A stretch of 52,734 nucleotides of DNA, from the UHGV virus genome UHGV-0124967; one strand, given 5' to 3'. The position numbers and the translations under genes are program-made. This stretch comes from a virus. A model generated the notes under the pieces. It ran no database searches. It was not told the origin of the DNA and worked only from the letters and a program-made list of their open reading frames with translations. Positions 9,528 through 45,005 of this stretch are shown piece after piece; positions within the stretch are counted from its first letter, which is position 1, and each line of letters starts with the position of its first letter.

Positions 9528-9644
9528 ATGAAAATAGAAGTTTTGGCGCTAATAATAATGGGATTGATAGTATTTGGCGTTCATTCTGTAGATCTGGACT
9601 GGAAAACGATAGCAGAAAATATAGCATTAATGGAAATGGAATAA
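9528..9644 (+). CDS. putative small membrane protein, 38 aa
   Basis: ATG 9528 with AGGTGA RBS; MKIEVLALIIMGLIVFGVHS hydrophobic; below ORF-track size cutoff. Confidence 0.35.
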   Translation: MKIEVLALIIMGLIVFGVHSVDLDWKTIAENIALMEME

Positions 9645-24843: not shown

Positions 24844-24939
24844 TCATAATTTACTCTTTACGGTTATCAGCGCAGCAATGACAAAACACACCAGAAATAC
24901 AGAAACACCGATTAGTCCGGCGATGATGTTCTCATCCAT
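24844..24939 (-). CDS. putative small membrane peptide, 31 aa
   Basis: MDENIIAGLIGVSVFLVCFVIAALITVKSKL; ATG 24939 follows stop of the preceding peptide. Confidence 0.3.
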   Translation of the reverse strand: MDENIIAGLIGVSVFLVCFVIAALITVKSKL

Positions 24940-34754: not shown

Positions 34755-35516
34755 TCAGTCCGGTAAAACGCGGTTGAGCGTAGTACGATTGATGGCCCGG
34801 TCGTTAGCCAGGAATACAGCACGGGCAAAGCCACGCGGCGTTAGTGAGCGGATCATCTTAGTGCGTTTCGACTTTCCTCCTAACTTAGCGTGCTGCTTAC
34901 TGTCTTCCCATTCATCAGGCATTGGCACAGGCAGGAATAGCGGCTGATTAAATCCATTCCCGCACCAGATACAAGTTTTCTTCGTGTATGCGTCGCGGTC
35001 GGCGATGTATTCCGGGAAGGCAGGATGTTTGTCATCTTCAGGCAGGTAGCCACCGTAAGCGCACGGGTTGAAGATAAAATCCGGCTTACGCCATAACGTT
35101 GACAGCGCACCTACCGGATTTTCCACCATCCACGGGACGTGGTACATATCAGCAAGCGTTTCTACCAGTTTTGCGTTGTATGCCGCCTTCTGCTGGAAGT
35201 AAGGTTCTTTTTTCCGCTTATCAGCAAACCAGCGAGCGCCGGACACCGCAAGATCGTCGCACGGAGGAAAGCCCAGGATAATGTCAGGATCTGGATAAAC
35301 AGACAATTCAGGGGAGAACATTACCAGGAAATGGCTGTCAATCCATACGTTGATATACTCAATGTTCGGATGAATGATTTTTGACGCCTTCATAATCGCC
35401 GTGATTAGCGCCATCATAGTTGAAGCAATAGCATTTATAACCAGCGTCGGCCCAATCTTTAACGGCGTATCCGCTGCCGTCGTACAGCGACCACACCACC
35501 CAATTTCTAAGTCCAC
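34755..35516 (-). CDS. DNA cytosine-5 methyltransferase-like protein (short, atypical N-terminus)
   Basis: PDPDIILGFPPCDDLAVSG resembles motif IV and WMVENPVG motif VI; no clean motif I, so may be truncated or frameshifted. Confidence 0.5.
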   Translation of the reverse strand: MDLEIGWCGRCTTAADTPLKIGPTLVINAIASTMMALITAIMKASKIIHPNIEYINVWIDSHFLVMFSPELSVYPDPDIILGFPPCDDLAVSGARWFADKRKKEPYFQQKAAYNAKLVETLADMYHVPWMVENPVGALSTLWRKPDFIFNPCAYGGYLPEDDKHPAFPEYIADRDAYTKKTCIWCGNGFNQPLFLPVPMPDEWEDSKQHAKLGGKSKRTKMIRSLTPRGFARAVFLANDRAINRTTLNRVLPD

Positions 35517-36019
35517 TCTTTCCTACCCTCGAACGTAAAGTAGCGGCGCATGATGATAGTGATCACCGTTACCGCCGCCATTTTTGAGATGAATTGCATA
35601 GCTGATATTTCCGGCATGAATGCCATAAACGATAGCGTTGGGAAAATTAACGCATCGCCAATGGCGGACGCTATATTTGCAGGCCAGCGTTTAGAATCGA
35701 AATCACCAGGTAAAACCCGGTAAACGCCGCCAGAAATAAGCGCACCGGAAACAACCGCGACGAATGACGCGATCGCCACCATTCCGGCGTCGTAATTTAT
35801 CAGCACCGTGATTGCGCCAGCGGCGGCGCATGTTGTAGCCGACCATTTAAGGCCGCCGTCATATAACAGAAAATCACGAATCATCATATTGACACACACT
35901 GCGGCTACCGTGGTGATCGGAATTACCCACGGGCCACAGTGGTTAACAATAAGATTGATGATCACGAAAACGGCGACATAAACGCAGGCTAATAACCTGT
36001 CAATTGTCACCCTTTTCAT
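35507..36019 (-). CDS. multi-pass inner membrane protein, 170 aa
   Basis: ATG 36019 with AAGAGGT RBS (track ORF starts at TTG 36061); several hydrophobic helices. Confidence 0.5.
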   Translation of the reverse strand: MKRVTIDRLLACVYVAVFVIINLIVNHCGPWVIPITTVAAVCVNMMIRDFLLYDGGLKWSATTCAAAGAITVLINYDAGMVAIASFVAVVSGALISGGVYRVLPGDFDSKRWPANIASAIGDALIFPTLSFMAFMPEISAMQFISKMAAVTVITIIMRRYFTFEGRKEWT

Positions 36020-36500
36020 TTGGATCGTACCTCTTATCACGAATAGCTTCAGCTCTATCAAACTTCAAATCAAGTCGAGTTGAAATGCAACCACATTGAG
36101 GGTTAAGCATAGAAGGCGGCAATCCCTTACAACTGGTTATAGCTTCATCTTTTATTAATCCACCATTCAGCGGCATATCAAAAACAGCCTGTTTCTTTCT
36201 TTGTTCTTCCTCACGTTCCGTTAATATTTGCTCAGCTTTTAGCGCGTTATAGCTAATTAAATCAATTAGTGTGTCTGTCGGATCGCTGTTATTGCTCAAA
36301 ATAGCCTCTAAACGCGCCTCCTTGAGACAAATTAGCAGATCCCATACATCAAGCGTGGTTAAATCTGCCCCCTTCTTAGCGTTGTAAATAGTGGCTATTT
36401 TTGGCGCTGATTTTTCCTCTTTTTTGTCGTAGCCGTTTTGCTTACCTCTTTGCTCTATGGTTTCTGATGCAAGTCTTAATAAATCTGCTGCCTTAGTCAT
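36000..36500 (-). CDS. hypothetical protein, 166 aa
   Basis: Track ORF; overlaps Dam end by 8 nt. Confidence 0.5.
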   Translation of the reverse strand: MTKAADLLRLASETIEQRGKQNGYDKKEEKSAPKIATIYNAKKGADLTTLDVWDLLICLKEARLEAILSNNSDPTDTLIDLISYNALKAEQILTEREEEQRKKQAVFDMPLNGGLIKDEAITSCKGLPPSMLNPQCGCISTRLDLKFDRAEAIRDKRYDPNEKGDN

Positions 36501-39469: not shown

Positions 39470-39732
39470 ACGCCAAACATCCCATTCAGACCAGCGAACA
39501 ACCGCCGCCAGTGGTTTTCAACATAAGCCCGGAACGGCTTAACGCGAACATTGCGGGCCTTCAGTTCAATCTTGTCGAAGAAACGCGGCTCTATAATTGT
39601 TCCGTCCAGATATTTAACCAGGATCGGGCGCTCAAGATCGTTATATGTCTTGTTCAGCACAACCAGACCAGGGTCACTACGATATTCAGGCAAAACAACA
39701 AGATCGCCCTCTTTTACATTCCAAGTAACCAT
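39460..39732 (-). CDS. hypothetical protein, 90 aa
   Basis: ATG 39732 overlaps stop of upstream peptide gene by 1 nt. Confidence 0.5.
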   Translation of the reverse strand: MVTWNVKEGDLVVLPEYRSDPGLVVLNKTYNDLERPILVKYLDGTIIEPRFFDKIELKARNVRVKPFRAYVENHWRRLFAGLNGMFGVWL

Positions 39733-39851
39733 CACATCACCACCTTACCAATAAAAGCCAATACCGCAGCAAGTGCTCCGCAAAATACAATCGTAAACAG
39801 GAAACAAATAACGCAAAACGCGACCGTCACAATATCCTTACCGACTTTCAT
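39732..39851 (-). CDS. putative small membrane peptide, 39 aa
   Basis: MKVGKDIVTVAFCVICFLFTIVFCGALAAVLAFIGKVVM; ATG 39851 with TGAGGT RBS. Confidence 0.35.
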   Translation of the reverse strand: MKVGKDIVTVAFCVICFLFTIVFCGALAAVLAFIGKVVM

Positions 39852-39859
39852 GATTAACC

Positions 39860-39973
39860 TCACATATTAGTAATCAGTTTTATGATCGCTACCGCGATAT
39901 AAAGCGAAGCGGCAAGATAAGCAACCGCTATTGCAACCCCTGCGGCTAACGCTGCTATTTTTATCATGTTCAT
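39860..39973 (-). CDS. putative small membrane peptide, 37 aa
   Basis: MNMIKIAALAAGVAIAVAYLAASLYIAVAIIKLITNM; ATG 39973 with GGAGG 9 nt upstream. Confidence 0.35.
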   Translation of the reverse strand: MNMIKIAALAAGVAIAVAYLAASLYIAVAIIKLITNM

Positions 39974-40194
39974 TTTTCAGCCTCCGCAATGAATTTATCC
40001 AGCCATTTGTTATTTGCCAGGCGTTCTGAGTCTTCGCCAAATGATTTACGATCGCTTAATTCCTGGCGCGTTGGGAAATTCCAGTGGTCATGCCATCCAG
40101 CCGATGTTTCGAATTCATACAAGCCGCCGCTAAAAGTAACAAGCTCATCAGCACCGTCCGGCATTTCCTTATCAACTTCTTTACCTTCGATCAT
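39970..40194 (-). CDS. hypothetical acidic protein, 74 aa
   Basis: ATG 40194 with TGAGGT RBS (track ORF extends to 40422 in same frame). Confidence 0.45.
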   Translation of the reverse strand: MIEGKEVDKEMPDGADELVTFSGGLYEFETSAGWHDHWNFPTRQELSDRKSFGEDSERLANNKWLDKFIAEAEK

Positions 40195-40207: not shown

Positions 40208-40486
40208 TTAATCGTTAATAACCTGGCCCATACGCCCGCGATATTTGCGCATACGTGGATCGACATATTCAGGCCAATGCATATCCGGTTTTCTTTGCAG
40301 TGGGTAAAAACTTGCCTGCCAGTTGTCGAACCATATTTGCTTTGCGTACAGGTCACTAAATCTTTTTGCCATCCGATCCGCTGCCGTGCCGCATAAAAAA
40401 AGCCCGCGATCGATTTGATCACGGGCTTCTTTTAATACTTGCTCTTTTGTTCGTGGTTGCGGTGGCGGTTTTAGATAATCACTCAT
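40208..40486 (-). CDS. hypothetical protein, 92 aa
   Basis: First ATG downstream of ssb stop (track ORF extends into ssb). Confidence 0.45.
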   Translation of the reverse strand: MSDYLKPPPQPRTKEQVLKEARDQIDRGLFLCGTAADRMAKRFSDLYAKQIWFDNWQASFYPLQRKPDMHWPEYVDPRMRKYRGRMGQVIND

Positions 40487-40502: not shown

Positions 40503-40922
40503 CTAAAAAGGAATATCGTCGTCAAAGTCCATCGGAGGCGGATTATTCCCGTTATTATTCTGCTGCTGCGGCGGCGCTTTCTGCTGCTGTCCTTGCTGCT
40601 GGCCTTGTTGGTTAACATTCATGAATTCAAATTCGTTAACCGCCACTTCTACCGCAGTCCACTTCGTGCCGTCGTTCCGGTCATATTGCCGAACATCCAG
40701 GCGACCGCTTACCACTATTTTTCCACCCTTGCGGATATGTGGCGCTAATTTTTCCGCACGCTCGCCAAATACCAGACAAGTGATCCACATTACCCGCTTA
40801 TTATCACCGTAGCCATTCGTTACAGCTAACGGGAAGCTACCGATCGCTTTACCGCTTTGCGTGTAGCGGACTTCCATGTCATTTCCGATATTCCCGCCCA
40901 GCGTAATTGAATTTAAGCTCAT
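40503..40922 (-). CDS. ssb: single-stranded DNA-binding protein
   Basis: 139 aa; OB-fold-like N-terminus, Gln/Gly/Pro-rich linker, acidic tail ending DDDIPF. Confidence 0.9.
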   Translation of the reverse strand: MSLNSITLGGNIGNDMEVRYTQSGKAIGSFPLAVTNGYGDNKRVMWITCLVFGERAEKLAPHIRKGGKIVVSGRLDVRQYDRNDGTKWTAVEVAVNEFEFMNVNQQGQQQGQQQKAPPQQQNNNGNNPPPMDFDDDIPF

Positions 40923-41563
40923 TAACCCATCTCCCCGTTAAGCTCTGATTTTCTGATCTGGTATACATCGCTCGCTTTCTGTCGTTGCTCTGAGTTTTCA
41001 GGTAATAACTTCCAGCATTTAGCAAAAATATCTTTAAGCGCTTTTTCGTCCTGCGCTTTCGCTGCCGCATCACAGAAACGTGCTAATACTTCATCAGGAT
41101 TTGGCGGCGCTTTCTGCTGCTGCGGTTGTTGTTTTGGTGGGTTTTTCTGTTGTCGCGGCTGCTGGCCTGTCTGCTTCGCGTAATCATCAGTATCAGGATC
41201 GCGAGCATCATCTATGCAGAATAAACCGTTCAAAGCATATTTCCGCGCGTAACTTGATGTTGCTCCTGTTAGCTGGCTGGCGTCCATACCCTTCTTGCTT
41301 TCTTCCTCCCTGGCATAAGCAGTTACCGCTATTACGTCTTCACCGTCGCTTAGCGTCGCCGTGGCTTTCACATAATAGCGATTGCCGATCAGGACAATTT
41401 CATCACTAACAGTCAGTGTGATATTTTGAAGCAGTGGTTTAACCGCCTCTAAAATATCCTCCGCAGACCTGTAATTATAGCCACCGAAGTTATTACGCTG
41501 ATTTTTCGGCGCATTCAGCGTTTGCTGAATCGTCCATAGTTTTTTATGTAACTCTGTTTTCAC
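40922..41563 (-). CDS. erf: Erf-family single-strand annealing protein
   Basis: GTG start with AAGGAG RBS; closely resembles P22 Erf as recalled (LNAPKNQ...KATATLSDGE...ASQLTGATSSYARKYALNGLF). Confidence 0.9.
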   Translation of the reverse strand: MKTELHKKLWTIQQTLNAPKNQRNNFGGYNYRSAEDILEAVKPLLQNITLTVSDEIVLIGNRYYVKATATLSDGEDVIAVTAYAREEESKKGMDASQLTGATSSYARKYALNGLFCIDDARDPDTDDYAKQTGQQPRQQKNPPKQQPQQQKAPPNPDEVLARFCDAAAKAQDEKALKDIFAKCWKLLPENSEQRQKASDVYQIRKSELNGEMG

Positions 41564-41712
41564 CCTTTAATCTCCTTCGCTGTTAACACTATGTATAAGG
41601 CTTTATTCGCGGCGCTCCACATTTCGGCATCATGAAGCATTTCCGCTACCGCCAGTTTGAATTGAAGCGCCAGAATAACCATAATGTCACCTCCGAACGT
41701 TTACATTTTGTA

Positions 41713-42003
41713 TTAATGGTAGCGGACTTTATCCAGGGGTTTTTCCCCTAAATGGCGTGGTTGCGTTGCGTGGTAGTAGCTGCCGCTTTCATTTTCCGTA
41801 TACCATTTTACTGATCCTTTGCGACGTTCTTTAATGCTATTTGGTTTGCATCTTTCCTCGTTTGCAAATCGAATAGCTTTATCCACATTGTCTGTTTTAT
41901 TGATTGCAGGTGATGATTTTCTTTCGTTTTCTCTTTTTATCCTTCTGCGTTCCCTGGCATTCATTTTGCTATCACATTTGCCATATATAATTGTAACGCT
42001 CAT
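41713..42003 (-). CDS. basic protein with arginine-rich motif; possible N-like antiterminator
   Basis: 96 aa; GGAG RBS; NARERRRIKRENERK near N-terminus; first gene of the leftward operon after CI. Confidence 0.5.
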   Translation of the reverse strand: MSVTIIYGKCDSKMNARERRRIKRENERKSSPAINKTDNVDKAIRFANEERCKPNSIKERRKGSVKWYTENESGSYYHATQPRHLGEKPLDKVRYH

Positions 42004-44903: not shown

Positions 44904-45005
44904 ATGGACGGTAAACACGTTTTCGCCCTGGCTTTTGCCATCGCTGCGGCAATCGATGTTAACGTCGCCTTGTTCGGCGGTCTGTACCTGCTAATCAATC
45001 CATAA
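44904..45005 (+). CDS. putative small membrane peptide, 33 aa
   Basis: ATG 44904 with GAGGAT RBS; MDGKHVFALAFAIAAAIDVNVALFGGLYLLINP. Confidence 0.3.
   Translation: MDGKHVFALAFAIAAAIDVNVALFGGLYLLINP

Follow-up and report, generated by a model that had tools for sequence, protein, structure and literature searches.

Many of the bacterial proteins that do not exceed 50 amino acids (aa) span the membrane with a single helix and act as regulators of larger proteins (bioRxiv 10.1101/511675; PMC11188072), and helix–helix action is the working mode of such small bacterial membrane regulators (bioRxiv 10.1101/511675). Here we analyse two adjacent mini-genes, which we call P1 and P2, in the early operon of the 52,734-nucleotide (nt) viral genome UHGV-0124967; the whole of this stretch is referred to as the window. 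The window is a mEp021-like temperate coliphage of the mEpimmI group. The phages of this group are Nus-dependent, non-lambdoid temperate coliphages, and the paper describing them does not discuss the P1 and P2 open reading frames (ORFs) (PMC11893012). The 3.3 kb around P1 and P2 is 84–86% identical to the corresponding region of seven GenBank phages (mEp021, mEp010, mEp013, mEp044, mEp515, mEp554 and MagusPhagus).

P1 and P2 are translationally coupled genes

A first-pass annotation made from the letters of the window had described two back-to-back ORFs of 37 and 39 aa with good ribosome-binding sites. Both ORFs are present, at the positions given below, and lie on the minus strand, which the annotation had not specified.

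39860–39973 (including stop), minus strand: P1, predicted single-pass membrane microprotein of 37 aa; ATG at 39971–39973, TGA at 39860–39862
39732–39851 (including stop), minus strand: P2, predicted single-pass membrane microprotein of 39 aa; ATG at 39849–39851, TGA at 39732–39734
39981–39985, minus strand: P1 Shine–Dalgarno sequence GGAGG, 7 nt 5′ of the P1 ATG and within the final codons of the preceding 74-aa gene
39858–39862, minus strand: P2 Shine–Dalgarno sequence TGAGG, 6 nt 5′ of the P2 ATG and overlapping the P1 TGA stop (39860–39862)

The P1 peptide is MNMIKIAALAAGVAIAVAYLAASLYIAVAIIKLITNM and the P2 peptide is MKVGKDIVTVAFCVICFLFTIVFCGALAAVLAFIGKVVM. The ORF listing also gives a 43-aa form of P2 that starts from a GTG at 39863. 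However, this start lacks a Shine–Dalgarno sequence and is out of frame in MagusPhagus-type relatives, and the ATG is therefore the conserved P2 start. The heptamer GCGGAGG, which holds the P1 Shine–Dalgarno sequence, is invariant in 29 of 29 unique relatives, with variable wobble positions next to it. At P2 the arrangement TGAGG N5–6 ATG is kept in nearly all relatives, the most divergent allele having GGGGTGAG in its place.

The 74-aa gene ends in a TGA that shares the sequence ATGA with the P1 start codon, a sign of translational coupling. P1 and P2 are separated by a spacer of 8 nt, and the P2 stop in turn overlaps the ATG of the following 90-aa gene, as TGATG in the window and as TGATG or ATGA among relatives. 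P1 and P2 are links in a tightly coupled chain that runs from the 74-aa gene through P1, P2 and the 90-aa gene onward.

P1 and P2 are under purifying selection

We compared the region across 51 loci, comprising the window, 7 phages, 2 Escherichia coli prophages, 37 IMG/VR contigs reached via the 90-aa neighbour and 4 further contigs reached via diverged 74-aa neighbours. Loss of the reading frames in related phages, set beforehand as the observation that would count against these genes, was not seen: P1 is intact in 50/51 loci and P2 in 51/51. The sole locus with a broken P1 (L010) is a metagenome contig carrying a 1-nt deletion in a run of A. The frames stay open across 33 distinct DNA versions of the region that have a median pairwise identity of 74% (minimum 59%). 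The remaining five frames contain a mean of 3–6 stops per sequence, although the most open one is free of stops in certain relatives and also in the window, where it forms a 119-aa plus-strand ORF (39511–39870).

The pattern of substitution is that of coding sequence. Variable columns at codon positions 1, 2 and 3 number 24, 18 and 35 in P1 and 21, 22 and 35 in P2. By pairwise Nei–Gojobori estimation, the pooled ratio of non-synonymous to synonymous differences per site (pN/pS) is 0.31 for P1 and 0.42 for P2, and the median pairwise ratio of the corresponding substitution rates (dN/dS) is 0.16 and 0.28, respectively. The flanking genes at the same loci give median dN/dS values of 0.20 (74 aa) and 0.17 (90 aa). 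P1 and P2 are genuine protein-coding genes in which the peptide sequence, and not merely the open frame, is under purifying selection.

P1 shares 69–70% protein identity with four representative variants, and P2 is 46–82% identical to the deposited ORFs. The P1 alleles form three divergent classes, with lengths of 37, 35 and 39 aa (the window compared with loci L009, L011, L001 and L016). Because the P2 of the window stands beside another P1 allele in L016, and because several E. coli matches do not span the full 242 bp, recombination seems to have produced mosaics with boundaries inside the two mini-genes or between them.

P1 and P2 are predicted single-helix membrane proteins

In the window, the 19-residue Kyte–Doolittle maxima of P1 and P2 are 2.49 and 2.80, respectively; across variants they range from 2.19 to 2.56 and from 2.58 to 3.08, well within the range of transmembrane helices. 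The uncharged core of P1 spans 26 residues (6–31) between K5 and K32. It is exactly 26 residues long in all 19 P1 variants, with Lys on its N-terminal side and Lys or Glu on its C-terminal side. In P2 the uncharged core spans 29 residues (7–35), is rich in Phe and Cys, and measures 26–33 residues among 26 variants. From the uncharged core of 26–33 residues found in every variant, each peptide is predicted to be a single-pass membrane microprotein with one helix, and both hydropathy and core length agree with the earlier prediction of one membrane helix apiece.

The sequence flanking the helix is short, amounting to 4–9 residues across variants and 4–6 residues at each end of the window peptides. 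No variant has fewer positive charges in its N-terminal flank than in its C-terminal one, and the slight N-terminal excess weakly suggests a topology with the N terminus inside and the C terminus outside. Invariant positions are M1, K5, I6, A7, L9, A11, Y19, S23, I30, L33 and I34 in P1 and M1, V3, F12, F17, F19, G25, A28, A29 and I34 in P2, in which three Cys residues are also usually conserved. An origin of the pair by tandem duplication was considered and rejected, as profile–profile comparison of P1 with P2 shows no similarity.

P1 and P2 are orphan core genes of the mEpimmI group

Neither peptide has a match in Pfam, PHROGs, NCBIfam or PADLOC, the best hits being non-significant (E 0.06–0.08). 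A search with the concatenated peptides returned only 40-aa P2 variants (22 clusters) and frameshifted assemblies. A P2 profile run against 1.84 billion representative proteins returned only 3 clusters, which appear to be the family itself, a cluster of 38-aa variants and a frameshifted assembly. Matches to P2 by tblastn were confined to the seven mEpimmI phages. A P1 query in tblastn against phages gave no hits, probably owing to masking by the low-complexity filter, and this says nothing against the presence of P1 in them. Two scans of the GTDB species representatives yielded no relative of P1 or P2, one pattern of the first scan having spanned the artificial P1–P2 junction. Among 5,426 complete E. 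coli genomes, 31 have the 242-bp region and 35 have the surrounding half of the phage, and all copies are chromosomal. P1 and P2 are lineage-specific orphan core genes, with no detectable homologues outside the mEpimmI group.

The first-pass annotation had presented P1 and P2 as unannotated, which is overstated. Both ORFs are entered as 'hypothetical protein' in 6/7 GenBank relatives (PHANOTATE- or Pharokka-type records). Public protein collections also carry the exact window peptides, P1 on 4 contigs and P2 on 99, under the name 'hypothetical protein' and once 'putative membrane protein', together with sister alleles on up to 290 contigs. The related statement that such peptides are usually missed by annotation does hold for PGAP, which leaves a gap of about 238 bp at P1 and P2 in E. 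coli prophages, and for the reference record of mEp021, in which 'TERM_2' and a ribosome-binding site are the sole features at this place, although it fails for the other six relatives. Small single-helix regulators are likewise often missed (bioRxiv 10.1101/511675). PGAP thus passes over two conserved core genes in phages of a group common in the human gut. Correction of the mEp021 record, which labels the stretch as intergenic with a terminator, would raise the number of genes and alter the model of the operon.

Some public assemblies carry P1 and P2 in frameshifted or fused form, for example with a 1-nt deletion in an A-run or as a 130-aa protein in which P2 is joined to the 90-aa product (L010 2733–3010; proteins P0023–P0026). 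These versions are probably sequencing or assembly errors.

Early-operon context

The assignment of the pair to an early operon proved correct. In coding-strand order a CI-like repressor and then the promoter region come first, followed by the genes listed here.

41713–42003: N-like antiterminator (gp17 homologue)
41560–41682, minus strand: Kil-like ORF of 40 aa, between the N-like gene and erf
40922–41563: erf
40503–40922: ssb
40208–40486: abc2
39970–40194, minus strand: 74-aa gene (phrog_28542), upstream neighbour of P1
39460–39732, minus strand: 90-aa gene (phrog_28396), downstream neighbour of P2
37042–37293, minus strand: Ipe homologue, 73/77 residues identical to mEp021 Ipe, in one operon with P1 and P2 and about 2.4 kb further downstream
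35507–36061, minus strand: multi-pass membrane protein of 170 aa (phrog_4899; without a match in Pfam), also part of this early operon

P1 and P2 thus lie downstream of the gp17 homologue, the Kil-like ORF, erf, ssb, abc2 and the 74-aa gene, and are followed by the 90-aa gene and then by ORFs of 61–63, 110 and 206 aa. Further downstream come ipe, methyltransferases, nin genes, Q and the lysis cassette. The order abc2, 74 aa, P1, P2, 90 aa, 63 aa, 110 aa, 206 aa is matched in the phages, prophages and contigs compared, and synteny is unchanged in the most diverged relatives found.

Lambda Kil is a septation inhibitor. The Kil-like ORF of the window matches Pfam Lambda_Kil (PF06301) at E = 2.4e-4, below the curated cut-off, and phrog_2055 at E = 0.0019, and has its own family, phrog_34942. 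It is probably the 'Kil-like protein' mentioned for the group (PMC11893012). Its presence in the operon makes division inhibition by P1 or P2 less likely. Ipe, the 'inducer of pleiotropic effects', causes haemolysis through HlyE vesicles and cell death when overexpressed (PMC6379469). The gene for the 170-aa protein sits between DUF6378 and Dam on one side and a cytosine methyltransferase on the other, and its homologue is labelled a 6-transmembrane protein in the mEp021 record.

The immediate neighbours of P1 and P2 were modelled with AlphaFold2. The 74-aa protein gave a low-confidence model (predicted local distance difference test (pLDDT) score 53). The model of the 90-aa protein (pLDDT 58) combines a small beta-rich domain with a hydrophobic C-terminal helix, and has no Foldseek match at E <= 0.001. 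PGAP and the mEp021 record label the 90-aa protein 'toxin-antitoxin system toxin subunit'. We rejected this label as a lead, as the protein has no sequence match in Pfam, NCBIfam, PADLOC or the PDB and no significant structural one; its family is restricted to E. coli prophages. A 119-aa plus-strand ORF (39511–39870) that runs across P2 and the 90-aa gene has stops in most relatives and was set aside as an antisense artefact.

Proposed role of P1 and P2

P1 and P2 are, with high confidence from the sequence comparisons, real and translated membrane microproteins. We propose that the two would be made together from the early operon under the control of the Gp17 (N-like) antiterminator. Gp17-dependent antitermination has been described for the group (PMC11893012). 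On the basis of that system and of the position of the genes in the operon, their expression would require both repressor loss and antitermination, and would be limited to lytic growth or induction. The peptides would then insert into the inner membrane during lytic development and, having no soluble domain, could act only there. We envisage that they do so through helix–helix contacts, made between the two peptides themselves or with a larger membrane protein of the host inner membrane or of the phage; in the latter case the 170-aa multi-pass protein is a conceivable candidate. The outcome would be an alteration of host membrane physiology during phage development. Taken alone, the assignment of P1 and P2 as membrane modulators is tentative and rests on analogy with small bacterial regulators, and we rate its chances as slightly below even. 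For the combined account, of real membrane microproteins with a modulator mechanism based on helix–helix association, we regard the case for and the case against as evenly balanced.

Several points weigh against this proposal. The pairing of the window P2 protein with a different P1 allele in L016 leaves strict co-adaptation of P1 and P2 unsupported. Neither helix has a one-sided conserved face (helical conservation moment p = 0.10 for P1 and 0.32 for P2); conservation is spread round the helices, so no specific interaction surface is evident. The low-confidence models of the 74-aa and 90-aa proteins gave no clue to function, and no partner protein of P1 or P2 was identified in this analysis. 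Experimental protein data for these phages are confined to virion mass spectrometry (PMC11893012). Direct perturbation of the membrane by P1 and P2 themselves is also compatible with the sequence.

A more specific form of helix–helix association is conceivable, in which P1 and P2 form a hetero-oligomeric membrane helix bundle that serves as a hitherto undescribed two-peptide early takeover factor, binding and inhibiting a specific host inner-membrane machine. We consider this form improbable. Possible targets would include routes of DNA entry (ManYZ or PtsG, for instance) and defence or respiratory complexes bound to the membrane, and the bundle might recruit the 90-aa protein via the hydrophobic C-terminal helix of that protein.

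Alternative explanations

A first alternative is that the products damage the membrane. On this explanation P1 and P2 would be type I toxin-like or pore-forming peptides that oligomerise, dissipate the proton-motive force and shut off the host early, or they would act as growth-arrest toxins. TisB, Hok, Ldr, Ibs, ShoB and DinQ-type toxins are tiny, highly hydrophobic and devoid of a soluble domain. P1 and P2 resemble them in size, in extreme hydrophobicity and in the same lack of a soluble domain, and so fit the type I description of a small hydrophobic membrane peptide (hydropathy maxima 2.49/2.80; cores of 26/29 residues). P1 is rich in Ala and other small residues (A7, A8, A10, A11, G12, A14, A16 and A18), and these, like its invariant Y19 and S23 and near-invariant Y25, could support self-association. 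Expression is also kept behind a repressor and terminators, as expected of harmful products, and the same operon encodes Ipe, which is lethal when overexpressed (PMC6379469).

However, the further hallmarks of a type I toxin–antitoxin system are lacking. P1 and P2 match none of the toxin families (Hok/Gef, Ldr, TisB, Ibs, ShoB and others) in Pfam at E <= 1, nor any in NCBIfam, and PADLOC returns a single non-significant candidate-defence match. The region has no match in Rfam and hence no recognised antitoxin RNA. The window contains one antisense promoter-like site, scoring 9/12; the best sites across relatives score 8–9/12, with none above 9/12, and the count of promoter-like sites (7) equals the expectation from shuffled sequence (mean 6.7). 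The antisense consensus fold has an energy of -5.4 kcal/mol with a covariation term of +0.21. A short GC hairpin (5–6 bp) with an antisense T-run recurs in many relatives at P1 codons 5–12 (39930–39965 in the window), where it is weak in the window and shifts in position and register between alleles. The simplest explanation of the hairpin is that the conserved K-I-A-A-L-x-A-A codons give rise to it incidentally. An undescribed weak antisense small RNA may nevertheless be present at P1 and P2. The stop–start overlaps with both neighbours and the long antiterminated operon mean that P1 and P2 are not an independent unit of transcription or translation, as a type I toxin gene would be, and apart from Lys or Glu at the boundaries the helices have no charged residues of the pore-lining type. 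Overall, membrane damage is an unlikely function for the pair.

A holin or antiholin function was also considered and rejected. In mEp021 some 9 kb of the operon separate the pair from the lysis cassette downstream (class II holin, lysozyme and lysis protein), and the C-terminal tails of P1 and P2, at 4–6 residues with at most one charge, are unlike the charged tail of holins.

P1 and P2 could instead block superinfection, by acting during replication on the inner-membrane route, such as ManYZ or PtsG, through which the DNA of related phages enters. Phages commonly use small inner-membrane proteins in this way, T4 Imm and HK97 gp15 being examples that act against superinfection. P1 and P2 are predicted to be membrane-embedded and, from their operon position, would be made early. 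The mEpimmI phages have lambda-like J tail tips, use LamB, OmpA or OmpC, and already invest in exclusion through lipoproteins (PMC11893012). The last point also counts in the other direction, as the exclusion function of the group has been mapped experimentally to the Lpp lipoproteins (PMC11893012). P1 and P2 do not belong with exclusion lipoproteins (Cor, Llp and mEpimmI Lpp): no P2 Cys is preceded by a lipobox ([LVI][ASTVI][GAS]C after a signal peptide, as in PMC11893012) and P1 has no Cys. They also show no similarity to families of the Imm, SieA or gp15 type. Moreover, it is usually the prophage that expresses the exclusion genes known so far, whereas P1 and P2 lie in a repressed, antitermination-dependent operon. 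We therefore think it rather improbable that exclusion is what P1 and P2 do.

The chain of overlapping genes raises a different explanation, in which the peptides are functionless and P1 and P2 merely relay ribosomes from the 74-aa to the 90-aa gene. The stop–start overlaps on both sides and the 8-nt spacer between P1 and P2 would allow ribosomes to be handed along in this way. Yet a relay requires only an open frame, whereas the dN/dS values of 0.16 and 0.28 stand close to the 0.20 and 0.17 of the flanking genes, the P1 core is exactly 26 residues in every variant, and K5, I6, A7, L9, A11, Y19, S23, I30, L33 and I34 of P1 and F12, F17, F19, G25, A28, A29 and I34 of P2 are invariant across divergent alleles. 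A pure relay is accordingly very improbable.

Finally, the idea that the 238-bp stretch is non-coding, with accidental ORFs around an intrinsic terminator, draws on mEp021 TERM_2 (score 85; L054 5883–5899), which falls at P1 codons 6–12, and on the GC hairpin present there in many relatives, but is highly improbable, because two ORFs stay open across 59–100% DNA identity with an excess of third-position changes, the hairpin varies in register and is weak in the window, a sense-strand U-tract is absent in mEp010-type and window-type sequences, covariation is about zero, and runs of GCN Ala codons yield such hairpins unaided.

Other hydrophobic mini-ORFs in the window

The first-pass annotation had pointed to three similar peptides elsewhere in the window. 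They exist and are alike in kind, but are not homologues of P1 and P2 by sequence.

24844–24939, minus strand: 31-aa single-helix peptide, MDENIIAGLIGVSVFLVCFVIAALITVKSKL, between a 180-aa gene and the terminase region
44904–45005, plus strand: 33-aa hydrophobic peptide, MDGKHVFALAFAIAAAIDVNVALFGGLYLLINP, after the replication gene; no family match
9528–9644, plus strand: 38-aa ORF, of which only the hydrophobic N-terminal half is kept, in mEp010_107 (45 aa)

The first ORF ends at 24939, and the end originally given for it, 25012, lies too far along. Contrary to their description as unannotated, the first two are conserved and annotated in relatives, at 24844–24939 as mEp044_73 and MagusPhagus CDS0058 and at 44904–45005 as mEp010_14 and MagusPhagus CDS0006. 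In MagusPhagus a second hydrophobic mini-ORF, CDS0059, adjoins CDS0058. The frame at 9528–9644 is not kept in MagusPhagus, and its coding status is therefore doubtful.

Comparison with known systems

The closest relatives of P1 and P2 are the orthologue pairs of the mEpimmI phages (mEp010_29/_30, mEp044_27/_28, mEp013_28/_29, mEp554_27/_28, mEp515_31/_32 and MagusPhagus CDS0113/CDS0112). These encode proteins of 35–39 and 38–40 aa with 46–89% identity to the window peptides. They share the position between the 74-aa and 90-aa genes, the ribosome-binding sites and the coupling, and do not differ in kind from P1 and P2.

Among characterised phage proteins, T4 Imm and Sp, HK97 gp15, P22 SieA, holins and antiholins are, like P1 and P2, small phage-encoded proteins of the inner membrane. 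They differ from P1 and P2 in being larger, in usually having at least two helices or a charged C-terminal domain, and in being expressed from the prophage or from a late lysis cassette. For lysis the mEpimmI group possesses a class II holin of its own, encoded in the lysis cassette, and for exclusion it has the Lpp lipoproteins (PMC11893012).

The type I toxins (TisB, Hok/Gef, Ldr, Ibs, ShoB, DinQ and ZorO) share with P1 and P2 a short, very hydrophobic sequence and a single inner-membrane helix, and such toxins are frequent in prophages. P1 and P2 differ from them in having no family match, no conserved antisense RNA or promoter and no unit of their own, and in having no charged or polar pore-lining residues except Tyr and Ser.

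The small regulators of E. coli offer a likeness in form. AcrZ, KdpF, CydX, MgtS, MgrB and PmrR are, as P1 and P2 are predicted to be, proteins of 30–50 aa with one helix and minimal extramembrane sequence, and AcrZ, KdpF, CydX and MgtS act by helix–helix contacts in the bilayer. P1 and P2 have no sequence similarity to these regulators in Pfam or NCBIfam, and are set apart by being phage-encoded, arranged in tandem in a lytic early operon and without an identified partner. As an orphan single-helix pair in a phage that has genetic tools and an E. coli K-12 host, they are a tractable piece of phage "dark matter", and if their membrane target were identified they would add to the phage microproteins, still few in number, whose mechanism is known. 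P1 and P2 are an orphan family of a known kind, the phage single-pass membrane microproteins, whose existence will not surprise the specialist.

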